64,000 bases of DNA from assembly GCA_017503725.1 (NCBI GenBank), contig JAFVSL010000003.1, forward strand, positions 6,236 through 70,235, in the 5' to 3' direction. Of the stretch, positions 1,662 to 46,741 are shown piece by piece. The position numbers and the translations under genes are program-made. The first letter of the stretch is position 1. Each line of letters opens with the position of its first letter. This DNA is from Alphaproteobacteria bacterium. GTDB lineage: Bacteria; Pseudomonadota; Alphaproteobacteria; Rs-D84. Below the pieces are notes generated by a model that saw only the letters and a program-made list of their open reading frames with translations, was not told the origin of the DNA and ran no database searches.

Positions 1662-3078
<1,417 letters not shown>

Positions 3079-3140
3079 TTTATTGAAATATCGCATTACA
3101 ATCGTCTAAACTCTTTTACATAAAGTAAAGGAGTTTTTTT

Positions 3141-7827: not shown

Positions 7828-7859
7828 AAAAAAAAATCCCCCGTTTGGGGGATTTTTTA
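7828..7859. terminator. bidirectional rho-independent terminator (csp / dnaK)
   Basis: aaaaaaatcccccgtttgggggatttttt: a perfect hairpin flanked by an A-run and a T-run. It overlaps the dnaK stop. Confidence 0.85.
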
Positions 7860-9752
7860 TTTCTTTTCAGAAAAATCTGCATCAACCGTGCCGTCGTCGT
7901 TTTTCGTGTCGTTGGCACCGGATGCGGCGGCTTGTTCCGCCTGGGCGGCTTTATAAACCGCTTCGCCCAATTTCATTGCCTTTTCAGACAATGCATCGGT
8001 CTTGGCTTTCAAAGATTCTGCGGTTGCGTCCGCCTTGGCCAATTCGTCTGCCAATTCTTTTTTGGCGTCTTCAATGGCTTTCTTTTCATCTTCGCTGATT
8101 TTATCGCCGTGTTCTTTCAGTGACTTTTCAATACTGAATATCGCTGTCTCGGCGGTGTTTTTCGCCTCGGCCAGTTCGCGTTTCAGTTTATCTGCCTCTG
8201 CATTGGCGGCGGCTTCATCAACCATACGTTTGATTTCATCTTCCGACAGGCCACCGTCTGATTTAATAGAAATCGCCTGTTCTTTGCCGGTGCCTTTGTC
8301 TTTGGCCGATACATGAACAATGCCGTTTGCGTCGATATCGAACGAAACCTCAATCTGTGGCATACCACGTGGGGCCGGGGCAATACCTTCCAGGTTAAAT
8401 TGACCCAATAACTTGTTGTCTGCGGCCATATCACGTTCACCCTGGAATACGCGAATTGTCACGGCCGATTGATTGTCTTCGGCTGTACTGAATACCTGTG
8501 ACTTTTTCGTTGGGATTGTGGTATTGCGGTCGATTAAGCGTGTAAATACGCCGCCCAACGTTTCAATACCCAATGACAATGGTGTAACGTCCAGCAACAG
8601 AACATCTTTTACATCACCTTTTAAAACACCACCTTGAATTGCGGCACCCATACCGACAACTTCGTCTGGGTTAACGCCTTTGTGTGGTTCGCGACCAAAG
8701 AATTCTTTGACCGTTTCTGCAACCTTTGGCATACGGGTTTGGCCACCGACCAAGATAACTTCGTTAATCTGTGATTTTTCCAAGCCGGCGTCTTTTAATG
8801 CCTTTTTGCACGGTTCGATTGTGCGTTCAATCAAATCACCCACCAAAGATTCCAACTTTGCACGTGTCAGTGTCGTGTTAAAGTGCTTCGGACCTGTTGC
8901 GTCCGCCGTCAAGAACGGCAGGTTGATGTCCGTCGACGTCTTCGAAGATAATTCGATTTTTGCCTTTTCTGCGGCCTCTTTCAAGCGTTGCAGGGCCAAT
9001 TTATCGCCCGACAAATCAATTCCGGTCTGGGATTTGAATTCCGCAATCAGGTGTTCCAAAATACGCGCGTCAAAGTCCGAACCACCCAATGCGGTATCGC
9101 CGTTGGTGGATTTTACTTCGAACACACCGTCGATAATTTCCAGGATGGATACGTCAAACGTACCACCCCCCAGGTCGTAGACCGCGATAATGCCGTCTTT
9201 ACCCTTGTCCAGGCCATATGCCAACGCGGCGGCGGTTGGTTCATTAACGATACGTAATACATTCAGGCCCGCAATACGACCGGCGTCTTTTGTTGCCTGG
9301 CGCTGGGAATCATTAAAGTACGCAGGTACCGTAATAACCGCATCTGTTACCGGTTCGCCTAAATAGCTTTCCGCATCTTTTTTCAGTTTACCTAAAATCA
9401 TAGCGGAAATCTGGGATGGGGCATATTTTTTGCCATCCATTTCAACCCAGGCGTCACCATTGTCACCCGCAACGATTTTGTATGGAACACGTGCGGCAAT
9501 TTCTTTGACGGCCGGGCTGTCAAAACGCAAGCCCATTAAACGTTTAATTTCATAGATAGTATTCTCGGGGTTTGTGACGGCCTGATTCTTGGCGGTAATA
9601 CCAACCAATTGTTCGCCGTTTGATGTCAGTGCCACAACCGATGGTGTTGTGCGCTGTCCCTCTGAATTTTCGATAATTTTTGGGTCCGTTCCGTCCATAA
9701 AAGCCATCGCGGAATTAGTCGTCCCCAGGTCAATACCAATTACTTTTCCCAT
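7857..9752 (-). CDS. dnaK: molecular chaperone DnaK (Hsp70)
   Basis: [14 protein letters not shown] start with an AAGGAG SD 8 nt upstream (the track ORF starts 3 codons earlier at a GTG inside the SD). Hsp70 signatures DLGGGTFD and [11 protein letters not shown]. No grpE or dnaJ adjacent. Confidence 0.97.
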
Positions 9753-17869: not shown

Positions 17870-17959
17870 CAAAGTTCAAAGTGCATAGTGCAAAGTTCAA
17901 TTAATGAATACATAATACTTAGATAAATAAAAGTTTATTTAACAAAAACGTTTCAGATT

Positions 17960-18118
17960 TTTGTCATTCCGGGGCGTATCGGGCCCCGAAAAATTCAAAT
18001 GAATTTTTTGGGTGATGGTGCCCCCGGAATCCAGGTGTAGGCAAATAAAAAGGAAATATGACCTGGGTCCCGTGGTCAAGCCACGGGATGACAGAATTTT
18101 TTTTGCAAAAAATTCTGT
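17960..18118. repeat. small palindromic MITE/REP-like elements (gtcattccgggg...ccccggaat and cccgtggtcaagccacggg types)
   Basis: Hairpin-forming GC-rich palindromes. Spurious ORFs across them translate to 'VVKPRDD' and 'WIPGSSPGMT'-type peptides, as known for short palindromic repeats of intracellular proteobacteria. Copy 1 carries an extra nested palindrome (ccccgaaaaattcaaatgaattttttggg) that copy 2 lacks. Confidence 0.7.
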
Positions 18119-18155
18119 TGTACTTCCTGCGATAAACTTTTATTTATATAAGCAA

Positions 18156-18184
18156 TTGCGCAAATGGAAACAATCGGTTATAAT
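18156..18184 (+). promoter_or_regulatory. sigma70-type promoter TTGCGC-N17-TATAAT of cassette 1
   Basis: -35 at 18156-18161 and -10 at 18179-18184 with 17-nt spacing. The same geometry (TTGCGT-N17-TATAAT) sits at the equivalent position of copy 2. Confidence 0.7.
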
Positions 18185-18190
18185 AATCGT

Positions 18191-18422
18191 GTTATGGTGA
18201 TTTTGCCATAATGAGGTGTAGTGACCTCTGTACTGGTGTCGGAATACAAAACTATGCCCATAGCGGTGTCGGTGGCGTATTCTGATAAATAGCTCCTGAT
18301 ATTGACGTCAGGAGGGTTGCGAATATATTGAATAAGCACACAATTCCAGTAATTGTCACTAACCTCCTGGCCACTCGTGAGAACGCGTGGTTTTTTCTTG
18401 TTAAAAAAAGGAGAAAAAGACA
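18191..18422 (+). promoter_or_regulatory. conserved ~230-nt 5' leader (candidate cis-regulatory RNA) of cassette 1
   Basis: Elements in order:
- +1 palindrome TTATGGTGATTTTGCCATAA (18192-18211)
- 24-codon uORF (18211-18285)
- helix CTCCTGA/TCAGGAG (18293-18299 / 18308-18314)
- alternative partner AACCTCCTG (18361-18369)
- hairpin plus T-run (18371-18396)
- SD aggag and ATG 18423
All are mirrored in copy 2. Confidence 0.6.
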
Positions 18423-18902
18423 ATGAAAAAAATATTGTTTGCGTTATTGCTTTTTGGAACGACTACCCATAGTAATGCAGCGACAGATTCCCAACAACTA
18501 TGTCATCCGTATGCAAACACCAGCCTTGCCGCAGAGTGCACTGTAATAAAAACAAATGCAATTGGTGCAGACGTATCTTGTTCACATCCGCTACTTGACA
18601 AGCCAGTAATGATCCATATTGTATCCAGATGCACATCGGATAGATTGGACTGTGTCGCACCTGGCTGTTCTAGCACTTTAGGGTTAACCTCTTTTAGACA
18701 AAAATATACTGCAGAATATCCTTTGCGATATTGTTGGTGCCAACGAACCGAACCGACAATGTCAGGTTTTGTCTACGCAACTGATGATGGGGATGTAGAC
18801 CGCTGTTCAAAAAACTGCGCAGAAACCTGTGCGGACATTTTAACAACCAAGAACCTTACAACCGTTCGTCGTAATCTACTTCAAGGTGTAGTAGTTTTTT
18901 AA
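18423..18902 (+). CDS. secreted cysteine-rich protein, 'YC[WF]C' family (159 aa)
   Basis: Signal peptide MKKILFALLLFGTTTHSNA. 14 Cys in the mature part. Core motif RYCWCQRTEPTMSGFVYA...CSKNCAETCA is shared with the ORFs at 18921 and 35467. Confidence 0.75.
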   Translation: MKKILFALLLFGTTTHSNAATDSQQLCHPYANTSLAAECTVIKTNAIGADVSCSHPLLDKPVMIHIVSRCTSDRLDCVAPGCSSTLGLTSFRQKYTAEYPLRYCWCQRTEPTMSGFVYATDDGDVDRCSKNCAETCADILTTKNLTTVRRNLLQGVVVF

Positions 18903-18920
18903 ATAACAAGAGGCAGAATT

Positions 18921-19724
18921 ATGAATAAGAAATTTATAAACGCTTTTATATTTGTTTTATGCGCAAACACAGCGATAGCACGTTCTGTGACCCTGTGTGT
19001 CAATCCAGACATACTTAACACATCTGTGACAAATTGGACCATTGGCACGGGCATAATCCAAAATTCAGGGAGTGGATACATCAATTTTAAAGCAAGAGTT
19101 ACAATCAACGACGGTGCCAATTATTTTATGTATACTAACGTATTGATTGATTCAAGATGCGGCAAAGTTTTAGATACGAACGTGTACAATAAGGCTTTTA
19201 ATGAGGACGATTTCTTAAACGATGCACATACAGGCAACAGCTATTGTTTCTGTAAAATGGTACGCCCATTCGTAACCCCATATTTTGCAGCCACATATGG
19301 ACCGCAAACTTCGATCCCCTATGATAATTGCGTTAATAACTGCGCTTATTATTGTGCGCATACTGTTCCAAGAGACGGTTTTCCAAACTTCATACTGGGT
19401 CAGCTTTTCAATATGCCAAATTTTGGAACTGACTATATTTCTACAGATGCTGTAACGAGAGGCCAATGCCCAACGAATTATTTGCCTATCGAAAAGGACG
19501 GCGTTGGTTTTGAAACTGATTGTACAGACACCGGTGGCACAGTATACACTAACTCCGTATTTGACTATGCCACGGCAGTAACCAGTTGCTTTTCCTCCGA
19601 TTTAGTTCCTGGCGAACCTTGTGCGATGTTTTATTGGGGCGGATATGAAGGCTCTGACGCAAGTGGCTACTTTTCTATAAAATCTAAAATATGCAATGAA
19701 TTCCCAGCAGAAGGGCTGTTTTAA
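18921..19724 (+). CDS. secreted cysteine-rich protein, 'YC[WF]C' family with C-terminal G-x-Y-x-x-D-x-SG module (267 aa)
   Basis: Signal peptide MNKKFINAFIFVLCANTAIA. Core SYCFCKMVRPFVTPYFA...CVNNCAYYCA. The C-terminus CAMFYWGGYEGSDASGYFSIKSKIC resembles the C-termini of the 34976 ORF and the giant protein. Confidence 0.75.
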   Translation: MNKKFINAFIFVLCANTAIARSVTLCVNPDILNTSVTNWTIGTGIIQNSGSGYINFKARVTINDGANYFMYTNVLIDSRCGKVLDTNVYNKAFNEDDFLNDAHTGNSYCFCKMVRPFVTPYFAATYGPQTSIPYDNCVNNCAYYCAHTVPRDGFPNFILGQLFNMPNFGTDYISTDAVTRGQCPTNYLPIEKDGVGFETDCTDTGGTVYTNSVFDYATAVTSCFSSDLVPGEPCAMFYWGGYEGSDASGYFSIKSKICNEFPAEGLF

Positions 19725-19751
19725 AAAATCCCCCGTTTGGGGGATTTTTTA
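19723..19751. terminator. bidirectional terminator (cassette 1 / rnj)
   Basis: aaaaaatcccccgtttgggggatttttt; the hairpin core matches the one at 7828-7859. Confidence 0.85.
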
Positions 19752-21518
19752 TTTCTGAATGAAATGCACACTGTATTGTGGTTTCTTGTCCGCCCCCAGG
19801 GACGCACGCACAACCTTGTTAGATGCAATTTGGACCGCACGGACCAGATTATCACGGTCTTTGCGTTCGGCCTTGCTTAACGCGTCAATCGCCTTGGTTA
19901 TTTCAATCTGAATCTGGCGTTTCATAAATCCGGTTGTGTCGGTTTCAAAGATTCCGGCACTGGAAACCTCTGGTACGCCCTTTAAAAATCCGCGCTTGTC
20001 AACCGGCAATGTTACGAATACCGCACCGTTGGACGCAATTTTGCGACGGTTCTTATAAACCTGGTCATCGGCACTGCGTTCGGTTTCACCCTCCATCACG
20101 ACATAGGATGTCTCGATTGTTTCGGCAACATATGGTTCTTCGCCATCGCGCAGGGCGACCATTTCACCATTATGCACAACCATCATATGTTTTGCGCCAC
20201 CACGTTCCATCGCCATTTTACCATTCAGCATTTCGTTGATATAGTCGCCGTGCATTGGAATTGATACCTGGGGGTGAACCATATCATAAAAGCGTTCCAA
20301 TTCTGGACGGCCGGCGTGACCACTGGCGTGAAGGTTATCGGTATCAAAGATTGTGTGTGTTTTAATCCCCATACGCGCCAATTTATTGTACAGGAATGAA
20401 ACATCTTGTTCGCGCCCCGGGATAATAATAGAACTGAATATAACCGTGTCGGTTGGCATCAGTTTCATTTCTTTTACCTGGCCACGGCACAGACGCGTCA
20501 GCATTGCGAATTTTTCGCCCTGGGATCCGGTCAAGAATATAGCCTGTTTTTCCGCTGGCAAATCCTTGATTTCGCCGTGGGTGTAAACTTCGTCTTTGCC
20601 GATATATCCAAATTCGATTCCCATTTCACGAAATTCCGGCAGGCCCACATAAGGCACCGGATTTGGATTTGTGCGCTCTTTGATTGCGGCAATGCGTCCG
20701 GCGGCACGTGCGGCCTCTGCAAACATTTTGATACGGGCCAGACTGCGTGAATATCCCGTCACGATAACGCGCCCCGGGGCATTTTTCATAATTTCAGTTA
20801 ACGTGTCACGAACCTGGGTTTCGGTAACTTGTTTTGTCTGGCGTGATGAATTTGTTGAATCGCACATACACGCCAATAATTTCGGGTCGGAACCAATTTC
20901 GCGCAAACGTGCGAAATCAGTTGGCGCTTCGATTGGAATATCGTCGTTGAATGTCCAGTCACCCGTATGCAAGATTTTACCCGCATCGGTTGAAATAATC
21001 AGCATCTGTGCCTCTGGCACGGAATGGGTAACGTGGAATGTTTCGACCGTGAACGGTGCCAAATCCAGTGTCGCACCATTGTGATCAAATTCAACAATAT
21101 CCGTTTTTTCGTTGAAATCTAATTCAATACCACGGAATGTGCGGCGCAGAATTTCCGCCGGGAATCGTGTGCAGTAAATCGGCTTTCTGAATTTTGGCCA
21201 AATGTACTTTAATGCGCCAATATGGTCTTCGTGACCGTGTGTGATGACAAAGCCAACAACATCTTTGCGGCGTTTTTCAAGCCACGTTGTGTCACAGTAT
21301 TGAACGTCGCCGGCACCGATTTCTTCTTCCAGGAAACCCATACCACAATCAACGATTAAATATTTACCCTGGTACTTATAGACATACATATTCTGGCCGA
21401 TGTGTTCCAATCCGCCCAATGCCATAAAGTACATTTTATCATCATTTTTGTCACTTTCGTGTTTTGTTTTACCGGTAATTTTTGCCGGCAAATTTTTCTT
21501 TTCTTTTACTTTTACCAT
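19749..21518 (-). CDS. rnj: ribonuclease J (metallo-beta-lactamase/beta-CASP RNase)
   Basis: 589 aa with the HGHEDHIG motif, a beta-CASP region and a C-terminal domain. aaagga SD before ATG 21518. Lys-rich N-terminal extension. Confidence 0.88.
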   Translation of the reverse strand: MVKVKEKKNLPAKITGKTKHESDKNDDKMYFMALGGLEHIGQNMYVYKYQGKYLIVDCGMGFLEEEIGAGDVQYCDTTWLEKRRKDVVGFVITHGHEDHIGALKYIWPKFRKPIYCTRFPAEILRRTFRGIELDFNEKTDIVEFDHNGATLDLAPFTVETFHVTHSVPEAQMLIISTDAGKILHTGDWTFNDDIPIEAPTDFARLREIGSDPKLLACMCDSTNSSRQTKQVTETQVRDTLTEIMKNAPGRVIVTGYSRSLARIKMFAEAARAAGRIAAIKERTNPNPVPYVGLPEFREMGIEFGYIGKDEVYTHGEIKDLPAEKQAIFLTGSQGEKFAMLTRLCRGQVKEMKLMPTDTVIFSSIIIPGREQDVSFLYNKLARMGIKTHTIFDTDNLHASGHAGRPELERFYDMVHPQVSIPMHGDYINEMLNGKMAMERGGAKHMMVVHNGEMVALRDGEEPYVAETIETSYVVMEGETERSADDQVYKNRRKIASNGAVFVTLPVDKRGFLKGVPEVSSAGIFETDTTGFMKRQIQIEITKAIDALSKAERKDRDNLVRAVQIASNKVVRASLGADKKPQYSVHFIQK

Positions 21519-21649: not shown

Positions 21650-21822
21650 AAATACAAAAGGGGGTTATTTTGTCGGAATTTTTCCACCGACGGAACCGAT
21701 TGTACTATTTTCTTTACAGATATGCAAGTTTATTTATCAAAACGATTGCACCACTCGGTATATCGTATACCGACGACACAGGAACATACGAATTTACAGA
21801 TGCGTGTACGATGAGCAACTAA
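21650..21822 (+). pseudogene. frameshifted relic of a cysteine-rich family gene (C-terminal module only)
   Basis: Frame 1 reads ...APLGISYTDDTGTYEFTDACTMSN*, against APAGESYTDDTGIYEFTDACAME* for the 34976 ORF. Upstream similarity (STDGTDCTIFF vs SSPSGDCIMYA) lies in a different frame. There is no start codon or signal peptide. Confidence 0.55.
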
Positions 21823-21848
21823 AAATCCCCCAATTGGGGGATTTTTTT
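21821..21848. terminator. bidirectional terminator
   Basis: aaaaatcccccaattgggggattttttt. Confidence 0.85.
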
Positions 21849-21852
21849 GTAT

Positions 21853-22323
21853 TTATTCTGCGACGGGCGCTTCTGGTGCCGGCGTCGGTTTACGCATTTT
21901 ATGTTTAAATGCTTTAAATTCAGACTTATCCACACAGCCATCGTTATTCACATCGATTTGTGGTAACATTTCAACCATCTTTGGGCATTTTACAACCAGG
22001 CATCCATTATCATCGAACTGTGGACGTGGCATCTTGGCGTGTTTTTTGCACGGCATAACCTTTGCCGCCGCGAATCCCAGTGCAAAAAATACCAATACAA
22101 CAATGAATTTTTTCCAGAAACCACAGTGATGCTTTTTGCATTCACAATTTCCACCGCACGGACAACCCTTGTCACATCCGCACGCGTGTGTTTCTACGAC
22201 CGGCGCGACAACTTTTAATTCAGGGGCCTTTTTTGCGACGGTTTTCTTAACAGGGGTCTTTTTTGCGACTGTCTTCTTAGTAGTTGTTTTCTTTACAACT
22301 TTTTTTGTTGTTTTTTCTGCCAT
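21853..22323 (-). CDS. membrane protein with Lys-rich repeat N-terminus, Cys/His cluster and EF-hand
   Basis: The N-terminus is a KK[TV]xxKK repeat (KKVVKKTTTKKTVAKKTPVKKTVAKKAP). It is followed by HACGCDKGCPCGGNCECKKHHCG, the TM helix FIVVLVFFALGFAAA and a canonical EF-hand loop DVNNDGCVDKSE. Confidence 0.6.
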   Translation of the reverse strand: MAEKTTKKVVKKTTTKKTVAKKTPVKKTVAKKAPELKVVAPVVETHACGCDKGCPCGGNCECKKHHCGFWKKFIVVLVFFALGFAAAKVMPCKKHAKMPRPQFDDNGCLVVKCPKMVEMLPQIDVNNDGCVDKSEFKAFKHKMRKPTPAPEAPVAE

Positions 22324-34941: not shown

Positions 34942-34968
34942 AAAACGCGCCACATGGCGCGTTTTTTC
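34942..34968. terminator. bidirectional terminator (tig / cassette 2)
   Basis: aaaacgcgccacatggcgcgtttttt. Confidence 0.85.
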
Positions 34969-34975
34969 TTGCTCT

Positions 34976-35455
34976 TTATTCCATCGCACACGCATCTGTA
35001 AATTCATATATGCCGGTGTCATCGGTATACGACTCGCCCGCGGGCGCGTACATTATGCAATCCCCGGATGGGCTTGACACCAAACACGATTCCGCCGTGC
35101 CAATGGCGATTGTGCCACTGGGGCAACTGGTTGCAAGGGTGATATATGGCCTGTCAATCGCGATATATCCCGCTGGACAATCCGTACTGGGCACATTACC
35201 CAAAATACACACACCGGCGTCACCGCATTTGAATCCACTGGCACAGGGTGGCACACCGGTGTAAACCGTCAGTGTGCTACTGGTACAGGTCTGTCCCAGT
35301 GTTGCCGCCGCCACACAGGTTGCCAGTGATAGACTACTCGTTCGCAAACATACCCCAGAATCACATTGCGTACTGTATAAACAATTTTGACCATTTGCGA
35401 GCCCTGCAATCGCGGATAACGGCGCCAGAGACATTAAAAATATCAATCGCTTCAT
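34976..35455 (-). CDS. secreted cysteine-rich protein with C-terminal G-E-x-Y-x-D-D-T-G...C module (159 aa)
   Basis: ATG 35455 with an aaggg SD 8 nt upstream (the track ORF begins at GTG 35464). Signal peptide MKRLIFLMSLAPLSAIAG. 15 Cys in the mature part. C-terminus CIMYAPAGESYTDDTGIYEFTDACAME. Starts 11 nt after the stop of the upstream gene. Confidence 0.75.
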   Translation of the reverse strand: MKRLIFLMSLAPLSAIAGLANGQNCLYSTQCDSGVCLRTSSLSLATCVAAATLGQTCTSSTLTVYTGVPPCASGFKCGDAGVCILGNVPSTDCPAGYIAIDRPYITLATSCPSGTIAIGTAESCLVSSPSGDCIMYAPAGESYTDDTGIYEFTDACAME

Positions 35456-35466
35456 TCGCGCCACCC

Positions 35467-35916
35467 TTAGTTTGATATTGAGCTAAACAGCGCGGACCGG
35501 AACTCGGGATAGTACTGAGCGTGCGTCGCACAATTGCCCGAACAGTAGAACGCGCAATTACTGGCGGGCGTGTATATGTTGGTGTATACCCAAGACGAAA
35601 CGGCCGGTTCAACCATCTTGCACCAGCAATAAAAATTGACTTCACTTGAGGCGTCGCTTAGCGTTGGTAATGCGCCGTCTGAATATATTGCATAATCCGT
35701 ATCGCCCTTTACATTAGAACACGCCGAAACTCCCTTAATCGGGACGTTGGTACCATCGGTGGTACAAGTTACCTCCCATTCGGCCGTACCATTCCAGTTG
35801 ACTGGCGTTGATGTACACGTGGTGGTTGATGAATCCAATGCCACGCATTGTTGTACCGCCATTGCGGGCACGGCAAGCAACGTGCCGACTGCGGTTAAGG
35901 TTAAAAGTTTTTTCAT
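35467..35916 (-). CDS. secreted cysteine-rich protein, 'YC[WF]C' family (149 aa)
   Basis: ATG 35916 with a gggag SD (the track ORF begins 13 codons upstream). Signal peptide MKKLLTLTAVGTLLAVPAMA. Core FYCWCKMVEPAVSSWVYT...CAFYCSGNCA. Confidence 0.75.
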   Translation of the reverse strand: MKKLLTLTAVGTLLAVPAMAVQQCVALDSSTTTCTSTPVNWNGTAEWEVTCTTDGTNVPIKGVSACSNVKGDTDYAIYSDGALPTLSDASSEVNFYCWCKMVEPAVSSWVYTNIYTPASNCAFYCSGNCATHAQYYPEFRSALFSSISN

Positions 35917-36161
35917 ATGTATCACTCCCTTTCTTTGTTCTTCGCGAAAAAACAAAAACCACCGAAAACTTTCGAGTGGTCAGGAGGTTAGAAACAATCT
36001 TGTGAATTGTGTGCTTATTCAATATATTCGCAACCCTCCTGACACTAATGTGCTCAGGAGTTTTATTTCATCAAAACACGACACGCCGGCAATTTACCAT
36101 TGCGTCATCTTTTAATGCACAAGTCGGGTTTCTACACCCCATTATGGCAAATCGCCATAAC
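35917..36161 (-). promoter_or_regulatory. conserved ~245-nt 5' leader (candidate cis-regulatory RNA) of cassette 2
   Basis: Mirror of 18191-18422:
- palindrome TTATGGCGATTTGCCATAA (36142-36160)
- 23-codon uORF (36071-36142)
- CTCCTGA/TCAGGAG helix with a different loop
- the same 40-nt invariant core
- AACCTCCTG
- hairpin plus T-run (about 35949-35980). Confidence 0.6.
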
Positions 36162-36167
36162 ACACCA

Positions 36168-36196
36168 ATTATAACTAAATCTTTCCCCTTACGCAA
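36168..36196 (-). promoter_or_regulatory. sigma70-type promoter TTGCGT-N17-TATAAT of cassette 2
   Basis: -35 at 36191-36196 and -10 at 36168-36173 on the minus strand. Same spacing and position as in copy 1. Confidence 0.7.
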
Positions 36197-36454
36197 TTGC
36201 AATGATAAATAAAAGTTTATCGCAGGAAGTACGAACAGAATTTTTTGCAAAAAAATTCTGTCATCCCGTGGCTTGACCACGGGACCCAGGTCATATTTCT
36301 TTTTTTATTTGCTTTCACCTGGATTCCGGGGTCAAGCCCCGGAATGACAAAAACGTTAAACGTTTTTGTAAACTGATTACCCCACTAAACTTTTATTTAA
36401 CGAAGTAATATTATGTATGCCAACACTAATCACTAACCACTTACGGCTCACCAC

Positions 36455-36480
36455 TAAAAAATCCCCCAAACGGGGGATTT
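36455..36480 (-). terminator. rho-independent terminator after the giant gene
   Basis: The minus strand reads aaatcccccgtttgggggatttttt directly after the stop at 36484. Confidence 0.85.
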
Positions 36481-36483
36481 CCC

Positions 36484-39400
36484 TTACCAAGACATATATC
36501 CGGGGTTACATTTACGTTCGCACTTTTTCGTGTCTGGATTCCATATCATTGTTCCGGTTTCGTCTTCGTATTCTTCACCAACTGGACAAATTGGAACGCA
36601 CTCATTATTTTCAAGGTTATACAATTCTCCCTGGTACATACAGGCCGCAATCGTACATCCTTCAATATAACTGCTTGCCGCGTCTTGCCCCAGTACGCTT
36701 TTGGCATTGCGACAGCGTCCACATTGTTTGTTTGGTTCGTCTGATTCATATGAATCATTTGTATATCCGGGTTCGCACGACGTTGCGATACATTCGCCCC
36801 ACGTGCCGCGATTTTCATCCCATTCACGTGTTCCCGTACCGTGTTCAACCGAGCACACCTCTACATCCGGGACACAGGCATTTGATGAAACGTGATATCC
36901 ATCAACGCATTCTGTAATCTTGCAGATTCCAAATGCGCCCAACTTGTTGTCCCACGTCTGACTGGCCGCATATGCGTTTGGTGCCGTGCAAGTTTTTACG
37001 TCATCTGCGCACTGGTCGCCCTCTGGATGGAATCCTGTATGACATTTCGCCACCAGACAGTTTCCATTTGGTTTGTACGCGGTTGCATTGGCGCGTTCAC
37101 ATCTCTGACAACGACCATCAATCAATTCATAGTCTGGATTACAAGATGTTTCAACGCACGTCTCGTATCCCTTGATTGTCTGAATTTCGCACGGATTTCC
37201 CGTCTCAGACATTCCCTTGAATGTACAAACATTGTCGTACTGTACGGTGTCACTGTCGCGTATTGCCATACCGCCCAAGATTTCGTAATCTTCACACGTT
37301 GTATAGCATTGTTCAATCTTGGTTGAACCCGCACCGGACAATTTATGTGTGCCACCCGTTAATTCATCACAGGTCATTGGTACGCCATCTGGGGTACCGT
37401 CTAAATCAATATCCGACCCAGACATTGCATCACAAACACTGTTTTCTGGGCACAATTCACATTGTGATTTATCCCCCGCCAGATAGTATCTTGTATCACA
37501 TACCTGAATTTCACAAGTGTCTGTCATATCCGCACCCTGATAGTCGCGGCCAACCATTGTTGTGACGTTGATCGGCGCATCACAGTCGCCAAAGCATTGT
37601 CCCACATTGGTCGAACCCGCATCTGATTCTGGGTAACGCCCATCAAACAGCGCGCTACACACCTGTGGTTCAGCATTCGCGACACCGTCAAATCCTGTAC
37701 GTGTGGATTCATCACAAATACTGCCGGCTGGACAAATATCACACTGATTATTATTGATGTAATATTTTTCATCACACGTATCCAACATACACGCCGTGCA
37801 ATCGGACGAATAATCTTCTGCATTCGTGTTGTATCCACAGGTCTTAATTCCGCCACCGTGTGCAACAGAGCAGGGCATTTCAGTCATAAAGCACGCGGAT
37901 GCATCACTGCTGGTGTCTGATTCTGTTTGTCCCGCGCGACCGTCAAATGTTGCACAACCCTGGCGTGCTGTTGGGCGTCCCTCGTTACCCGCATCTGCAA
38001 CCGGCCCAAAGAAGCCATAGCCAACCTTGGTACAATCCGTATCGCCAATCGCATTCCAATAGTATCCTGGGTCACACTTCTGGAACATACGCGCACGACA
38101 TTCCGTGTATCCTTTGTTCTCGGGCGAATAGATACAGTATTGGAATCCAGAACCGTGATCTGATGTGAATGGATTTTCCGCCTTGAAGCACGATGTAGAT
38201 TCCGCAGCATTATCGACGTTTGTGTCACCACCGTCTGGACATGGCGTTCTGTTCAAACTGCCTGGTTCACTGTACGCATCATATCCAACCGCCGTACAAT
38301 CAATTGCCGCCGCATTTTCACGATAGTATCCACCCTGGCACGTTGTTATATACTTGTCACGACAATTGGTCGCATACTTCGCACTGCCGTCTGCATTGTC
38401 GGACGTGTAATTACATACCTGGGTACCCGCGCCGTATGTCGCGTTGTATTCAACGGTCTTGTAACATTCACCGGCATCATCTGCGGTCGTCAGTGTGCCC
38501 GTCAACCCATTTTCTGGACACTCATAACGTTTCAGGTCATCTGTACCACTGTAATGGTTTATACCAACCTCGACACAGTCTATACCAGATACATAATAGT
38601 ATCCCGCAACACATTTCTTGACCGAATGGTCGCGACAGGAGGCATCATATGCCTTTGTGTCTTCATCATAGTTACACGTTTGTGTCCCACTGGCCTTGCC
38701 GGTTGTGGACGTGTATGCCAACCCTTGCTTATAGCATACACCACTGTTGGTCGCGCTTGCGCCACCGGCCGATATGCCACCATCTGGGCAAATTTCGTGA
38801 CCGCCAACGACACCCGTATCTGTTGGGTATGTTCCGCCCGGACACCAGTGATCGGCTGCACAAACAACACAATCTCCGCCCCGGCCTGGGTAATAATATC
38901 CAGCCTCACAGACCGTGTCGCCTTCGGACCAAACAACATTTGCGGTTGTATCGTTTGTTGTCACACGCAGGGCCGCATTTGTATTTTGCAAAGTACCCGC
39001 CGCATCAATAATCATAACGTCGCCGACGCTGTAACCCGCAAAGTTGTATCCAGATTTACCGGGCAGGGCACTCGTATCTATTGTTGTTAATGCCTTGTTT
39101 GCCGCTACATCTTCGAACCAGCCCACCGTGTATTTCAAATATACTGGTTTTTGTGTTGCGTTTTCTGTGGCATCACTTGCCACCAATTCAATTTTGAATA
39201 CATCTGGTTCCCAAATGGCGTACAGTTTTGTATCGCTACCGTTGGCCGAGATGTTTTCAGATGTTGCGACATTCGCGGCATAGCACGCACCCGAACCGTT
39301 CGCATTGGTGCACCATTTGTTCGCAGACACATATCCCGCACGTGCCAGTCCATCCGTCGCTGGTAACTTACAGGCGCCACTGTCAAATGTGCATTCGACA

Positions 39401-42400
39401 TATGCTGTAACATCGCCTGTGCCCTGGTTTTTATCCAGCGTAACCGTATATTTATTCGCGACACATTGCGGATTTGTGCCGTTTTTCGCAGTATAACCCG
39501 CATTGCACGTAATTGTATAAGAACAGGCTGCGTATTCAGCACTGGCCGTGTTGTATGGCGCGTTGGCTTCGTCTGGTGTTACAGTCTTGCTGTTTGTGAT
39601 GTCTGACGTTGTCAAAGAACAGGCACTGTAACAATCCGCCTCTGTTGCACGTGGCGCATTAGAACCGATTCCGTCATTTGCCGCACCGGTTTCGCCTGGA
39701 CAGGCGTGCGCGGCCATACTTTCTGTGTCCTCGGTCCCGTTTTCTACAACCGGTGCCGGACTGTAATATCCATCTGTTACCGGCGTACATGCGTTGCCAA
39801 CACCGCTATAGTAATAGCCCGCATCACACGTCAGCGCAATAGAGTCACAGTTTGTTGTGTATATTGCACTATTACCGCTACCACTTGTATACCAACAATC
39901 CCACTTTGCGGTACCAAAGTTGAATGTCATATCACCCCCATCGGTTGTAACCTTGCGACAGTCTGATATGCTGTCCGCACCAGCGGTGGTTGTTGCACCA
40001 TTCGCCGGACAAGTTTCCATACAACCGGTCGAGCCTTCGTTAATTTCGCCACTGCCCGGGCAATATTTTCCCAATTCACAGCGTGTACGCACACCGTTGT
40101 TGTAATAATATCCGGCCTCGCACGCAACCATATTCTGGTCCCAAATCGCATACAGGGTAATTTCACCACCATCCGACAGCAGGTTTTTAATACTGCCGTT
40201 TGCGACAATGGTTTTTCCTTTGCCGTCTTTCTGGGTATTCCAGACACTGAATGTCTTGTTCGGCATTTCAATTGTATCAGCGGCTGCACATTCCATATCA
40301 TACACGCATGTAACATCCGCAACATTCAGGCTTCCTGCATCTGTCGGATCAAAATGCACCGTAAATGTTGTTGGTGTCCAGTTTGCAACAACGGTTATGT
40401 GACCTGTTGTGCCCGCAACAATTTCATTGTTTTCAACCTTGTCACCGGTCCAACCATCAAAGATATAGCCCGTTTTTACAGGATCCTTTAATGCAATTGG
40501 CGTATCTGATATTGTATAAGCATCCGGATTTTCGGCATTGTTGGTACCGCCGTCCAAATCATATGTAATCACATACGAATCAGAAGTCCAGTTCGCAGTC
40601 AGAACCATATCGCCGATTGAACCATTTATAATCTGTGTAACCGTATTGCCATTTGCGTCGGTCCACTTGCTGAAAGTAAACCCTGTTTTTTCTGGTTTCT
40701 TTAAAACGATAGTGTTTGTTTCAACAGTGTACTCATCTGGGTTAGATTCACCGGTCTTATAAGTCCCGCCATTAAGATTGTATGTAATCTTATAGGTAAC
40801 AGGTGTCCACTTTGCCCAGAATTCTTTGTTGCCGATTGTGCCTGCTGAAATCTCGGTAACACTTGTGTTGAAACCGCTGTCGCTGAACCAGCCACCAAAA
40901 TCATAACCACGTTTTGTTGGATTGGATAACACAAATGCATCTTCAATTGTATATGTTTCTGGGTTTGAATTGCCCGCATAATATCCGCCATTCAAGTTGT
41001 ATTTGATGGTATACGAATTTGGCGTCCACTGTGCAACAAGCGTTATGTCTGCCGTATACGTGTTATTTGCAGGCAACAGACCATCTGTGCCGATAACAAG
41101 TGTACCCTTGCTATCATAATAGCCCATAAATGTATAACCATTGCGTGTAGGCAATACAATCGATTCCAAGGACGCACCACCGGCGGCATTGTCATACCAG
41201 CCAACCGTATATGTTTGATAAACGGTGCCCTGACCACCAACGCCGTTATTATCATTCAGCGTAACCGCATATGTGCCCGGTGTACATGATGCAACATCCG
41301 ATGCCGTCATTGGTGAACCATACAATGTTTTTCTATAACCATATTGAACCGCAGACGTCGTATTTGCAACATATCCAGCATCACAAACAAATGTAAACGA
41401 ACAGAAAGAGGTTGGTGTACAAACCGTCTGTGGATACCAACGATATCCCTTGTTAGGCAATGTACCTTCTGTACACGTGGCGTGTTCTGGACAGTGGTTT
41501 ATATTGCCAGACACTTCTCCTTGCTCATTTATAACATAATCGTTCGCATAATCACACGTTGGTGCACAGGCATCATAACAAGCATTTGGACCATTCTGTA
41601 TCGAAGCCATAGAAGAATAGTTATAAAAGTCAACGGGTTCCAAACTCTCGCACGTTGCGCTGCAGGTTGGATATTCTTCAGACATGTAATAGCCCGATTT
41701 ACACACGGTTTGTGAAGAATATAAATCAACCGGACACGCTGTGCTAGATACAACACACTCTTCTGAATCGTAATACTGTACGCCGGACAACTTTGTGTCA
41801 GAAAGAAATTCGCATTTTAAGAAATTTCCTGGACAACTGCTTGGTACTACACAGCTTATCTCACAAGTCTTGTAACACTGTTGTTCGGCGTCGCCGGCAA
41901 CACAAATATTGTAAGTGCCCTGATATTCGGCGCCCAGCGCAGAACACGACGTTGTACAACTTGAGCATACGCCATTGCTTGGGTATGTGCCACTTGCGCA
42001 ACCACAGGCACCATCTTCAGTGCTGTTGCACGCATTCCATTGTGCGGTAAAGGTCAGACTGGCCGTACAGGTGCCCTTTGTGACTGATGTGACCGTCGCA
42101 CCCGTGTCATCCTTCCATCCTGCAAATGTATAACCCGCGCGTGCAATGTTATCAGCCGTCGGCAGGGCAAACGTATCCGTATCCGCATTACACGACAACA
42201 TATAGTCACCGCTCCATTTTGTGTCGTCTGGGGTTACGTATGTGATGGTCTTTGCCCCTTCGGCAACATATTCTGCGGTAAATGTTTTTCCACTTGTATA
42301 AGTCCATAGAAAATCTGTTCCCGCGGTGTGAATTGTTGTCCCGTCATTCCAGTGGCTGAAATCATAACCAACTGGTTCGGTGCAAGTATTTGTCGCCGGT

Positions 42401-45400
42401 GCAAAGCCCGTATTATAGATTGCCGTTGCATTTGCCGGTGCGGTACCCGTTCCGTCGCCACAATTGTATGTAACGGTATAGGACTTTGGAGTACATACAC
42501 AGGACAAGCCGGTGCATTTTGGTGTTTCGTAACCCGTGGCGCATTCCGCACTTGCCACACAGGTGTTATTAGAAACACTGACCGAACACGTTGATACACC
42601 GGTACCCTTGGTGCAATCTGCACACTTGGTCCATTTTGCGGTGAACGACATTTCGGATACACACGTGCCCGCCGCAACAGATGTTGCCTTTTCCCCCGTT
42701 GCGTCGTTGTACCATCCATCAAATGTATGACCAGCGCGTGTAATTGTTGGCAATGTGATATCGCCCGACATAACGTTACATTCTGTGTCACTGACCGTTG
42801 TTCCACCGTTTTCATTAAATGTAACATTGTTCATACCGCCAACAGCCCACTGGGCATATAGTGTCGTTGCCTTTGCAATATCCCAGGTGCGTGCCGATTG
42901 ACCCACCGCAGTATAGTACTGTGTGCCACCCGTCTTGGCATCAAACCAACCTGTGAACACGTATCCAGCCTTTGTTGGTGCGGTCGCACTGATTGCCGGC
43001 ATTGTGCTGTCATACGTTGCTAAAACATCTGCTGACTGACCGCCTGTACCACCATTTGCGTCAAACGATATTGTGTACTGGTTCGCCGTCTTACAGGCAT
43101 AGTATGTGCTGTTTGACGGTGTTGTAAACGTGCTTACCTTAGCGGTACAGGATTGGGATGTTCCCCAACCGCCTGTAAATGTATATCCGGTCTGTGTCAG
43201 GACAGATGCATCACCAAAATTACAATCTGCACCCTGGTAACAGGTCACAGATGCGCCAAGCGAACCGGCCCCGCCATTTTTATCCAGCGTTATCACGCGA
43301 TAACAGTCGGATGATGAATCGTGGTCTGCCGCTGTTGTGCCGGTGATGGTATATCCAGTCGTACAACTGTTTGCGCAACTGGTTGCAGACGAACCGTTTG
43401 TGATCTGGTATTTACCTGTTCCACATACAACGCACGACAGGGTTGCGCCATTCACATATGCACCGGCTTTGGCTGTAACAGATGTAACAGTTGGCACACA
43501 CGCGGTCTCGGTTGTAATGCCATAAAAGTCTTTATAATTGCAAGACGCCCATGTCGCACTGTGACAGTTTGTTGGGATATTGCCCTTGGTAACCGTTACA
43601 AGATTATAACAATCTTCTTTTGCATCAGCCCCCAGTTCACTGTCCGGATATTCCGTCGGACAGGTCCCAGTAATCCCCTGATTAACAGAGGTGCTATATG
43701 TGTATTCACCACCACCACAGTAACTGTCTTCTGGACAGGATTCACACTGTGTTTTTAACATTGGCAAATATTCGCCTTTGTCACACGTATATTTGTTGGC
43801 GGTCCATTGTGCGGCCAGTGTCGTGTTCCCCACCGTTGTATAGGTGTATTCGGTGTTCGCCTTTGGGTACTTGCCGTTCCAACCCGTAAATGTATATCCC
43901 GTACGGGCACACATAGCCCCTGGCTGGGTTGTGAATTTATCGTCAAATGTCACCGTTTGTGTATTGCTGTATGGGGTTTGAGTATTGCCACCATTACAAT
44001 TATAAGTGACTGTATATTCATTTGGGGTTAATTTACCATAGACCGTGATATTTCCCGTGCCAGATGTCTTTGTAATTCTGTTGTTGTATGCGGCATCATT
44101 AAACCAACCGCCAAACGTATATCCGGCTTTGGATGCGTCTGTGAACGTCACAGGCGATTCGACCGTATAGGTTGTAGCATTGCTGTGTGTCGCACCATCA
44201 GCGATTTTATATGTAATTGTATATGATACTGCATCACCCCAAATTGCATATAGCGAAACGCTGCCATTATTATTGGTTGTCAGGTTGGAAACGCTTTCTT
44301 TGTCTGAATATTCAACATTGCCATCACTGCTGCGTGCCCATCCCTGGAATTTTAGACCGTCTTTTGTAAACTTGTTTTCGCTCAGATTTTGTGCAACACC
44401 ATATGTAAATGACTGGCTGCTCATTGTGCCCGAACCGGTATTTGCATTAAACGTAACCGTATATTTATTTGGTGTAGCGGAACATTTGCTTACGTTGTTA
44501 CTGGACGTGCCACAGGTTGCTGTATTATATCCTGCCGACGCGGTTGCTGTTGCGGTACCACAGATGCCCAACGGTGCACTTGGTGTACAGGATGCAACAC
44601 CTGTTCCCCGGTCACAGGTACACTCTGCGCCCCAGACTGCGTACAAATTAACCTTGGCGCCGTCTACACTGCTCAGGTTTGATACACTTTGTTTGTTGGC
44701 GTATTTGGCACTGCTTGCGCCACTGGTTTCGGCCCAACCCAAGAACTGTTTCGCGCCATTTGTGAATCCATTTGTGGACAAGGTGTCCGACTTGTTGTAT
44801 GTGTGCGTGCTGGTTGCGGTTGTTCCAGAACCACCATTTGCATTATATACAATCGTATATGTAATCGGATCACAACTTGGGTTATACGCTCCGGAATTTG
44901 AGATGTCCTTGTACCCGGTTGCACAGTTGGTTGCATAAGAACACTGGTTATTCACGACACTTAACACACAGGTCGCACCCGTTCCCTCTGCACACGCTGT
45001 ACAGGCGCTCCACACCGCATACAGTGTCTTTTCACCACTTGTGATAATATTTTTGATACTTGCGCCCGGCGCGTATTCGGCCACCGTTGCATTGTTTGTC
45101 GATGCCCAACCTTGGAAAGTACTGTTGGTCTTCAACATTGTACCCTGGCTTGTCGCCAAACAGGTCCCATTATAAGAACAGTTCTGCGAACTGACCGCTG
45201 GTACGCCAGAGGTTGCGCCGTTTGTATCATATTTAATGGTTATCGAATTTGCAGAACACGCATAATTATAAGATGTAGAACCAACCGTGCCCGTGTATGT
45301 CCCGCTGGTCCCATAGCCATTGTTACAAGTAACTGTACATTTTGGTGCGTTTGTCGTTGTGTTCGCTGGTTTCGCGGTTCCATTATCAGCACTGCAAGTT

Positions 45401-46608: not shown

Positions 46609-46741
46609 ATCTTCCTCTCTTTTGTCTTTTATGGTAGTAAAAATGCGCCATATCGCGCAAGGGGAAATATTAAAAATCAATTTAAAAAATATATTTGACG
46701 CATTTTTGGTGCTTGACTTTTTATAAAAGTGTATTTTTTTG

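Follow-up and report, generated by a model that had tools for sequence, protein, structure and literature searches.

Secreted cysteine-rich proteins of Rs-D84 Alphaproteobacteria belong to a family that elsewhere supplies the variable proteins of a diversity-generating retroelement

Cysteine-rich genes and leader RNAs of the window

The stretch of DNA analysed here (64 kb, referred to below as the window) carries two operons encoding small secreted proteins rich in cysteine. Three of the genes, designated A, B and C, were listed in an earlier note, and their coordinates, strands and peptide strings are all exact as given there; a fourth, D, lies 2 nt after C and was overlooked. In the list that follows, VP denotes the variable-protein type of a diversity-generating retroelement (DGR).

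18110..18422, + strand: leader of the A-B operon, conserved (20 leaders aligned; RNAalifold and pair counts)
18156-18184, + strand: promoter-like TTGC-N17-TATAAT of the A-B leader
18191-18212, + strand: hairpin P1 of the A-B leader
18369-18402, + strand: terminator of the A-B leader
18423..18902, + strand: gene A, divergent VP-domain paralogue, 159 aa, profile E=5.4e-14
18921..19724, + strand: gene B, divergent VP-like N-domain (about aa 1-170) fused to a D-like C-domain (about aa 171-267)
19729..19743, + strand: intrinsic terminator of the A-B operon, bidirectional and common to RNase J
21748..21820, + strand: remnant of a third D-like gene, its 3' 22 codons and stop followed by a terminator, E=4e-8
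34942..34965, - strand: intrinsic terminator of the C-D operon
34976..35464, - strand: gene D, secreted Cys-rich partner
35467..35916, - strand: gene C, canonical family member of VP type, 149 aa, with signal peptide and 9 Cys in the mature part
35917..36230, - strand: leader of the C-D operon, conserved, showing covariation and sharing 80-83% identity with the leader of A
36168-36196, 36141-36161, 36029-36043, 35979-35989 and 35947-35981, - strand: promoter-like element, P1, S2, S3 and terminator, respectively, of the C-D leader

The proposal that A, B and C are paralogues holds, their homology being far stronger than chance would give. We made a profile solely from database relatives of C (alignment A2, with A and B left out) and ran it against all six-frame ORFs of the window; it recovers C at E=6.6e-59, A at 5.4e-14 and B, through its N-domain, at 7e-10, with no further family member among those ORFs; profile searches also find the family domain absent from the neighbouring 3,398-aa protein. 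All three proteins were said to have Sec leaders and many cysteines, and both points are borne out: each starts with MKK, continues with a hydrophobic core and then shows an A-x-A site as judged by eye (SNA/A in A, AIA/R in B and AMA/V in C), and the mature parts contain 7-10 Cys. Judging from these sequence features A, B and C are probably exported and disulfide-rich, and for their family we infer export, localisation and a binding function. The divergence of the three from one another is ordinary old paralogy.

The description of the family as unrecognised also stands, in that A, B and C have no match above cut-off in Pfam, NCBIfam or PHROGs and a profile search of PDB sequences gives no family match. 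At the level of the protein there is thus no clear match to a characterised family, whereas at the level of the system there is one, to a DGR, as described below. The family to which A, B and C belong is unannotated; its exported, disulfide-rich domains measure ~120 aa and fall into ~1,500 clusters at 50% identity, so that for annotation these clusters of 'hypothetical protein' become one defined domain family. Named members all come from MAGs of uncultured gut Alphaproteobacteria (Ca. Enterousia, order Rs-D84, and relatives), and Enterousia genomes, at less than 1 Mb, hold 12-14 copies each. Gene C has 189 full-length homologues, every one a 'hypothetical protein' from Alphaproteobacteria/Enterousia MAGs, and homologues of gene A form one cluster only (87-92% identity). 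Proteins of 650-6,200 aa also carry the domain, in tandem repeats that do not vary.

Gene D is a conserved operon partner of the family. Its C-terminal 72 aa form a domain with 5 invariant Cys (profile E=3.6e-34), which we refer to as D-like, and a D-like gene follows a VP gene in more than 60 loci; the gap is usually between a few and ~30 nt, but 100-320 nt in ~10 of them. The remnant at 21748..21820 is what is left of a decayed VP/D-like locus. In B, the last 100 aa appear to resemble D, although the homology is weak for the B of the window itself: by hhalign the D-like profile matches the C-terminus of a B-like protein at another locus (L080) with E=9e-7 and probability 91%, and that of the window B with E=8e-4 and probability 24%. 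The N-terminal extension of D scores 29.6 bits against the Pfam Colipase model (PF01114; cut-off 27) through a weak colipase-type Cys pattern. The likeness lies in the Cys spacing of the N-terminal 35 aa of D, which A, B and C do not share, and it is probably a convergence of Cys pattern in a lineage-specific extension from which no function should be read. A VP would probably work together with its co-transcribed D-like partner, the two being fused in B; from the odd Cys counts (9 + 5) a single disulfide between molecules would be expected.

Within the A-B leader the helices S1, S2 and S3 are mutually exclusive, and more than 50 loci have a conserved leader of the C-D type ahead of their VP gene. 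An Rfam scan of both leaders gives nothing above threshold. Outside the C-D leader, a sub-threshold Rfam match to WsnRNA46 at 36242-36366 corresponds to a palindrome in a distal repeat.

Retroelement cassettes in related and conspecific genomes

In related and conspecific loci the canonical family members are DGR variable proteins, encoded in cassettes with the order VP (containing the VR), template repeat (TR), a 108-aa ORF, the partner gene and a reverse transcriptase (RT). Over the 132-nt core, TR and VR differ at 15, 16 and 18 adenines in L005, L078 and L079 respectively and at no other base in any of the three; the corresponding figures for L062 are 13 A and 2 non-A differences, and in a further cassette (L085), compared by eye, TR and VR differ chiefly at A sites and at about 3 non-A sites. 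L078 and L079 come from different samples and have an identical RT and the same TR, but different VRs. Remote copies on other contigs (L009, L003 and L006) fit the TR at non-A sites as far as an 18-nt element, with a single G>A in L003 as the sole exception, and an arrangement with remote targets is accepted for DGRs (PMC5758913). Family members with near-identical N-termini carry unrelated residues at ~14 fixed positions.

The cassette RT has the motifs IGNLTSQ and YCDD and matches RVT_1 at 38-47 bits (Pfam cut-off 29.6) and PHROG 1423 at 1.9e-94. Its best PDB match (E=2.5e-45) is 8ub7, a 328-aa 'reverse transcriptase' which we take to be the DGR RT (bRT) of Bordetella phage BPP-1. The accessory genes Avd, HRDC and MSL were not detected in the cassette, and searches of Pfam, PHROGs and PDB yield no match for the 108-aa ORF between TR and RT. 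An avd gene is likewise missing from about 26% of catalogued DGRs (PMC5758913). We found no published account of Enterousia, RF32 or Rs-D84 together with a DGR.

A MAG that is conspecific with the window (IJD41; 96-98% nucleotide identity in RlpA and RNase J) encodes this cassette RT, and the species of the window therefore has the RT. Within the 64-kb window itself a tblastn search with the Enterousia RT finds no RT, and blastn finds no TR, the 3' parts of A, B, C and D giving self matches only. The window carries target-type genes only.

The cassettes account for the motif by which the family had been recognised. The earlier note described a core, 'YC[WF]C-x3-P ... C-x2-NC-x3-CA', and placed the divergence outside it. 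A stable scaffold with diversified residues is indeed seen, but the hypervariable positions lie inside the second half of the core, between the invariant Cys and Ala: entropy reaches 2.85-3.7 bits at positions 112-116, 120, 123-124, 127-128, 131-132 and 134-136, and is 0 bits at C121, C125 and C129. In the DGR mechanism the RT copies the 132-nt TR with misincorporation opposite template adenines, and the resulting cDNA replaces the 3' end of the gene, the VR, in adjacent and remote copies. Codons without adenine, TGY (Cys) and GCN (Ala), remain fixed while the intervening AAY codons are randomised. Because TR and VR differ at TR adenines only, 'C-x2-NC-x3-CA' consists of fixed adenine-free Cys/Ala codons set among randomised AAY, and the motif is the footprint of the TR. 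Diversifying selection had been proposed as the source of the variation; diversification itself is upheld, but in canonical members it is made by the retroelement and not by selection alone.

Genes C, A and B as targets

Two features within gene C bear on its relationship to the template repeats:

35485..35604, - strand: VR-homologous segment of C, codons A105-F144, in gapless alignment with related template repeats
35485..35502, - strand: 18-nt GC-rich element TTCCGGTCCGCGCTGTTT at the 3' edge of the TR/VR homology, candidate IMH-type homing element

The entropy peaks of the family fall within the first of these. Compared with the conspecific TR (L078), the segment differs at 10 of 25 A sites and at 14 of 95 non-A sites (OR 3.9, p=0.0097), and compared with the L005 TR at 11 of 26 A sites. 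The 18-nt element matches TR5/TR78 and the verified adjacent and remote targets exactly (18/18; targets compared, L003-L006, L009 and L010), and the homology of remote targets to the TR stops immediately after it. In C this element may act in homing.

These observations argue against the view that no DGR ever acted on the window genes, which would then be ordinary lineage-specific secreted Cys-rich paralogues, related only by descent to the domain that the DGR uses elsewhere and varying through positive selection and recombination between paralogues. Not only does C keep the exact junction element and show mismatches biased towards A sites, but its VR segment is collinear with the TR, shares the fixed Cys/Ala codons and has NNY codons at most TR AAY positions. 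In favour of that view are the existence of the domain as non-variable tandem repeats and the lack of TR similarity in A and B. Furthermore the whole C gene, beyond the VR, differs between strains while its flanks are conserved, which suggests replacement by a paralogue, and the low pS at A-B (in gene A, pN=0.05-0.06 and pS=0.014 between strains) suggests recent recombination. On balance we consider it unlikely that these genes were never targets.

Whether C is still being rewritten is a separate matter. None of the TRs of L078, L079 and L085 matches C at all non-A sites, and the 14 non-A mismatches to the conspecific TR mean that C is not a fresh TR copy. In a sister strain the C orthologue carries a 3-nt deletion together with, by eye, about 10 mismatches at non-A sites, and 4 samples share one sequence for it. 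Since C has these mismatches, and its orthologue has both drifted and stayed invariant across samples, current diversification of C is doubtful. We propose that C, with D, would be a VR-bearing copy that has drifted from the TR of its species, and so a former or at best infrequent target.

A check of diversification among orthologues had been suggested, and in both A and B pN greatly exceeds pS between strains. In gene A 13 codons are changed; the third base is kept in all of them, 6 are double changes at positions 1 and 2, and Asn is a frequent allele. However, the codons altered in A and B are spread over 315-435 nt and in B reach into the signal peptide, a range wider than the 132-nt TR/VR homology of the family. 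The span also exceeds the usual size of a DGR VR. No IMH-like element is present in A, where the best match to the 18-mer has 8 mismatches, and none resembling it is seen in B by eye; neither the window nor ~1.3 Mb of Enterousia DNA contains a copy of A or B resembling a TR. The DNA of A and B is identical in 6 samples of the conspecific lineage, one of which has the active cassette. A and B are divergent paralogues of older date; they are not rewritten at present, and their amino-acid diversification between strains is extreme.

A possible alternative is that a DGR elsewhere in the genome, possibly with more TRs, currently rewrites in trans every copy in the window, C and perhaps A and B too. 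The RT is present in the species and sister genomes do diversify remote targets, C retains the 18-nt element, and the codon changes in A, with spared third bases, double changes and Asn, have the appearance expected from such a process. Against this must be set the non-A mismatches of C, the invariance of the C orthologue and of A and B across samples, the width of the A/B changes and the lack of any TR-like A/B copy in the DNA searched, and we regard continuing rewriting as improbable, if slightly less so than the view that the genes were never targets at all. Our preferred reading, to which we assign a probability of roughly 0.78, is that this unannotated secreted family comprises DGR variable proteins elsewhere, and that in the window C is a drifted VR copy and A and B are older paralogues not now being rewritten.

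Predicted scaffold and comparison with known systems

An AlphaFold (AF2) model of C (pLDDT 82.5, pTM 0.75) shows a beta-sheet and two C-terminal helices, 118-135 and 137-145; it was computed from a 31-sequence alignment. The VR helices have pLDDT 92-94. In a separate model the N-domain of B has the same order of strands and then two helices (pLDDT 70-84); the C-domain of B is left unmodelled (pLDDT ~33) and does not inform the packing of VP against D-like. The variability moment peaks at 90-100 degrees, with variable and fixed residues on opposite faces (p=0.012). The model, together with the periodicity of the variable positions, predicts an alpha-helical VR with a randomised exposed face, the other face being pinned to the small beta-sheet by the three invariant Cys. 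Such a helix face would be a ligand-binding surface on a scaffold other than a C-type lectin.

This prediction runs counter to the working rule of the field, that DGRs write onto C-type-lectin folds, as all annotated VRs do, with VRs of unknown type expected to be new variants of that fold (Roux et al. 2021, PMC8144416). In keeping with that expectation the VR domain could be a cryptic C-type-lectin variant and the helical model, built on 31 sequences only, could be wrong. Foldseek comparison of the C model with the PDB gives no significant match, to a C-type lectin or otherwise (best E 0.9, TM <0.25), and BFVD yields nothing (best E 0.7). The confidence of the VR helices and the agreement of the B model argue in the same direction as the PDB result, and the 3.6-4-residue periodicity and the i/i+4/i+8 Cys spacing are facts of sequence independent of AF2. 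We therefore think it quite improbable that a lectin fold has been missed.

As to function, the best guess by analogy is that the family consists of ligand-binding proteins. The earlier note had offered toxins and effectors as candidates, for which we find no supporting context. The proteins are small, secreted and disulfide-rich, and come from an organism whose genome is reduced and which probably depends on a host (PMC12306168), as would suit secreted toxins or bacteriocin-like effectors; but each genome has 12-14 of them, all paired with a partner gene, and the DGR targets known so far are binding proteins, making this the least probable of the alternatives considered. A toxin or bacteriocin identity was rejected, there being no adjoining immunity, dedicated transporter or processing gene.

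DGRs are, to our knowledge, the only prokaryotic machines for targeted protein hypervariation. A more far-reaching reading, which we hold tentatively and at somewhat less than even odds, is that here the DGR randomises the face of a disulfide-stapled helix in a new ~120-aa fold, the first DGR scaffold that is neither C-type lectin nor Ig-associated, present in 12-14 partner-paired copies behind a shared attenuator-type leader, and that a new accessory ORF replaces Avd. If true, a helical, disulfide-pinned scaffold randomised at ~14 positions would break the C-type-lectin rule and would constitute a new minimal natural library scaffold. A host-dependent gut bacterium of less than 1 Mb would then devote a substantial part of its coding capacity to 12-14 variable binders and their partners, and the family offers a concrete handle on the attachment partners of Enterousia.

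The closest points of reference are Mtd (BPP-1), TvpA (Treponema denticola) and LdtA (Legionella). As in those systems, the target carries its VR at the C-terminus, a nearby TR of AAY design differs from the VR at adenines only, the RT is of the DGR clade and the targets are exported or at the surface; the Treponema and Legionella DGRs also have remote targets, found here on other contigs (PMC5758913). In Mtd, TvpA, TaqVP and AvpA the VR is carried on a C-type-lectin fold, whereas the prediction for the present family is an alpha-helical VR with three invariant Cys as staples, and a C-type-lectin fold was not detected. Relative to Mtd, TvpA and LdtA the protein is tiny (~120 aa when mature) and has an obligate small partner gene, there are 12-14 paralogues in a sub-1-Mb genome, and Avd, HRDC and MSL were not detected, an unannotated 108-aa ORF being present between TR and RT instead. 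The multi-target DGRs of CPR bacteria and DPANN archaea, which are episymbionts, likewise occur in very small genomes of host-dependent organisms and diversify exported proteins, presumably for attachment, but the CPR targets are of C-Lec/DUF1566 type, whereas the present cassette, VP-TR-108aa-partner-RT, belongs to Alphaproteobacteria (Rs-D84). A final analogy, and only that, is to affibody-type libraries, in which residues on one helix face are randomised over a fixed core. The Enterousia scaffold is evolutionarily unrelated to these, and is natural, disulfide-stapled by prediction and diversified in vivo by reverse transcription.

A family of secreted, cysteine-rich proteins

The earlier note proposed that three small secreted, cysteine-rich ORFs in the window are paralogues of an unrecognised family. 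Their positions stand as described there, and the peptides quoted match exactly:

18423-18902, plus strand: gene A, 159 aa
18921-19724, plus strand: gene B, 267 aa
35467-35916, minus strand: gene C, 149 aa

By eye, all three start with a Sec-type leader. A profile built from database relatives of C only and searched against all six-frame ORFs of the window recovers C (6.6e-59), A (5.4e-14) and B (7e-10) and no further member, so the paralogy is real and the set is complete in the window. The family is indeed unrecognised, in that A, B and C have no match above cut-off in Pfam, NCBIfam or PHROGs, and a profile search of PDB sequences with the family returned nothing.

Full-length relatives of C number 189 in a 90%-clustered database, all 'hypothetical protein' from uncultured Alphaproteobacteria MAGs. 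An exhaustive profile search yields 1,527 clusters at 50% identity (696 of them at E<=1e-10), including proteins of 650-6,200 aa with the domain in 3-6 tandem copies; its named members are again Alphaproteobacteria or Ca. Enterousia. Scanning species-representative genomes gave 74 loci, by far most of them titled as animal or human gut MAGs of Ca. Enterousia or Alphaproteobacteria; individual MAGs, SIG48 and BRZ_KL bin36 among them, carry 12-14 copies. Enterousia (order Rs-D84) have genomes mostly below 1 Mb, without TCA cycle or respiration (PMC12306168).

Diversification by a retroelement in related loci

We conclude that this unannotated domain family is a real target of a diversity-generating retroelement (DGR), the mechanism itself being of an already known kind, on a scaffold predicted to be new. 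In many family proteins the N-terminal 100 residues are identical while the last 35 differ at about 14 fixed positions, with invariant Cys, Ala and Ser between them; positions 112-116, 120, 123-124, 127-128, 131-132 and 134-136 have an entropy of 2.85-3.7 bits, and C121, C125 and C129 one of 0 bits. At L005, a locus from another genome, a 132-nt copy of the 3' end of the variable protein (VP) gene lies about 220 nt downstream of it and has AAC or AAT at every site where the gene varies, all 15 core differences falling at adenines of the copy. On the 3' side of this template repeat (TR) come ORFs for a 108-aa protein, a small Cys-rich protein and a reverse transcriptase (RT) of 341 aa. The RT matches RVT_1 above the Pfam cut-off and PHROG 1423 at 1.9e-94, and carries the motifs IGNLTSQ and YCDD; its best PDB match is 8ub7, a 328-aa 'reverse transcriptase' (E=2.5e-45) that we take to be the Bordetella phage DGR RT. 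The cassette is a DGR.

Cassettes of this type are also present in L062, L078, L079 and L085, and decayed ones, with TR or RT truncated, in L054 and L045. L078 and L079 come from separate samples and share one TR and one RT protein sequence; their variable regions (VRs) depart from the TR at 16 and 18 A sites respectively, and at no non-A site in either. Three loci on other contigs (L009, L003 and L006) agree with the TR at non-A sites as far as TTCCGGTCCGCGCTGTTT and diverge beyond, the single exception being one G>A in L003; the DGR therefore rewrites remote targets as well. The 'C-x2-NC-x3-CA' core singled out in the earlier note consists of adenine-free codons (TGY, GCN), unchangeable by the DGR mechanism, alternating with randomised AAY codons. 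We found no paper pairing Enterousia, Rs-D84 or RF32 with DGRs, and large DGR catalogues may list the cassettes with their target undescribed.

Every cassette has a conserved basic 108-aa ORF between the TR and the gene for the conserved VP partner (D-like):

L005:9049-9375, 108-aa ORF
L062:11171-11497, 108-aa ORF
L054:10942-11268, 108-aa ORF
L078:2657-2983, 108-aa ORF
L085:5113-5439, 108-aa ORF

It has no match in Pfam, PHROG or PDB, the cassettes contain no Avd, and it is a candidate for a new DGR accessory protein. At L080 an A-like (151 aa) and B-like (271 aa) pair stands back-to-back with a DGR RT copy (283-1573, minus; 2090-3115, plus). There is no TR between gene pair and RT, and the surroundings are unlike those of L078/L079 despite the identical RT protein; possible explanations are a rearrangement and an assembly chimera formed at the shared repeat.

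Status of the copies in the window

Neither TR nor RT is found within the 64-kb window. The IJD41 MAG (GCA_017420805.1) is conspecific with it, at nucleotide identities of ~98% for RlpA and ~96.5% for RNase J (pS=0.15, pN=0.001 in RNase J). As this MAG encodes RT P0131, whose cassette is that of L078/L079, the window's species has the DGR. Gene C keeps the exact 18-nt junction element, a candidate homing-type stretch at the 3' edge of TR/VR homology, and differs from the TR of L078/L079 at 10/25 A sites and 14/95 non-A sites (OR 3.9, p=0.0097); its VR thus seems TR-derived, yet not a fresh copy. In a sister strain the orthologous VR carries a deletion of 3 nt as well as some 10 non-A mismatches by eye count, and it does not vary across four samples. 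From this orthologue and the mismatch spectrum we judge that C was once a target or is one only rarely. Neither TR-like DNA nor a junction element is present in A and B, whose DNA is identical in six IJD41-lineage samples, one of which also holds the active cassette; these genes are not currently rewritten. The window copies are non-active or doubtfully active only.

Divergence between conspecific strains
Gene A: pN 0.050-0.061, pS 0.014
B N-domain: pN 0.037, pS 0.009
B D-like domain: pN 0
RNase J (adjoins A-B): pN 0-0.001, pS 0.12-0.15

Between conspecific strains, A-B (18423-19430) shows roughly ten times fewer synonymous and fifty times more non-synonymous changes than RNase J (19749-21518). 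Many changes at the locus are double, at codon positions 1 and 2. In A the third base is kept in all 13 changed codons, six of which carry both of these changes, and Asn is a common allele. The locus may have spread recently by recombination and then been subject to diversifying selection of great strength; alternatively, an unseen TR may on rare occasions act as a source of retrohoming.

Partner gene, leader RNA and predicted scaffold

A gene for a ~95-aa secreted protein with five invariant Cys, the D-like partner, comes next after the VP gene at over 60 loci, usually within a few to ~30 nt but 100-320 nt away in about ten loci; the DGR cassette has the TR and 108-aa ORF placed between VP and D-like genes. 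In the window this partner is:

34976-35464, minus strand: gene D, D-like partner of C

B appears to be a VP-like domain fused with a D-like domain (hhalign of D-like against B itself, E=8e-4, probability 24%; against the B-like protein of L080, E=9e-7, probability 91%). Mature VP has 9 Cys and D-like 5, both odd, and the fusion 12, which suggests one intermolecular disulfide. The N-terminal 35 aa of mature D (35360-35464, minus) exceed the cut-off of the Pfam Colipase N-terminal domain (29.6 vs 27 bits, E=5e-7), probably through convergent Cys spacing in a lineage-specific extension. What remains of a third VP/D-like locus lies at 21748-21820 (plus): the last 22 codons of a D-like gene (ISYTDDTGTYEFTDACTMSN*), with a terminator behind them. 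Directly upstream of the C-D operon (36484-46680, minus) is a 3,398-aa secreted Cys-/Thr-rich protein with Flg_new (Listeria-Bacteroides repeat) domains, in which VP and D-like domains are absent.

The 5' regions of A and C are 80-83% identical, and the proximal ~300 nt of this leader is conserved upstream of VP genes at more than 50 loci:

18110-18422, plus strand: conserved leader upstream of A
35917-36230, minus strand: conserved leader upstream of C

In an alignment of 20 leaders, the 5' part has a promoter-like site (TTGC-N17-TATAAT) followed by a hairpin with compensatory changes in 7/9 pairs. There are then two mutually exclusive helices (CUCCUGA / GUCAGGAGG / CCUCCUGAC), paired at 95.5% (S1:S2) and 97.7% (S2:S3) with double-sided changes in both, against 25-67% in slid controls, and an intrinsic terminator in the 3' part overlaps S3 right before the RBS. 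The leaders of A and C match no Rfam family and look like a candidate undescribed attenuator or riboswitch-like RNA. Upstream of family leaders is a ~195-nt distal repeat with a palindromic core:

Window 17930-18110 (plus) and 36204-36399 (minus), distal repeat
L078:3345-3538, L083:98-291, L082:1-158 and L080:1877-2043, distal repeat

Across genomes, identity reaches 97-99% among the copies upstream of C and of RT genes, in the latter case by roughly 45 nt. The repeat scores 48.8 bits against Rfam WsnRNA46, below the gathering score of 65.3; it may be MITE-like or else serve as a shared regulatory module. Near-identical bidirectional terminators (AAAAATCCCCCnnnnGGGGGATTTTT) form a family that recurs between convergent genes throughout the window (7831-7864, 19723-19756, 21820-21853, 36456-36489 and others).

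An AlphaFold2 model from a 31-sequence alignment (pLDDT 82.5, pTM 0.75) has five beta-strands and then helices 118-135 and 137-145, on which the VR sits (pLDDT 92-94 there), and the model of the B N-domain repeats the order of strands and two helices. Without reference to the model, variability shows a periodicity of 90-100 degrees; variable and fixed residues centre on faces at 148 and 310 degrees respectively (p=0.012), and Cys in the VR are spaced i, i+4, i+8. The scaffold is apparently new, a structural novelty that is itself predicted. Mtd, TvpA and related proteins have the C-type-lectin fold, whereas no likeness to it is detected in the Enterousia family, as Foldseek finds no neighbour of the model in PDB (best E 0.9, TM <0.25) or BFVD. 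Annotated VRs are systematically C-Lec, the remainder being expected to be C-Lec variants (Roux et al. 2021), and on the predicted model this family is a candidate exception to that rule.
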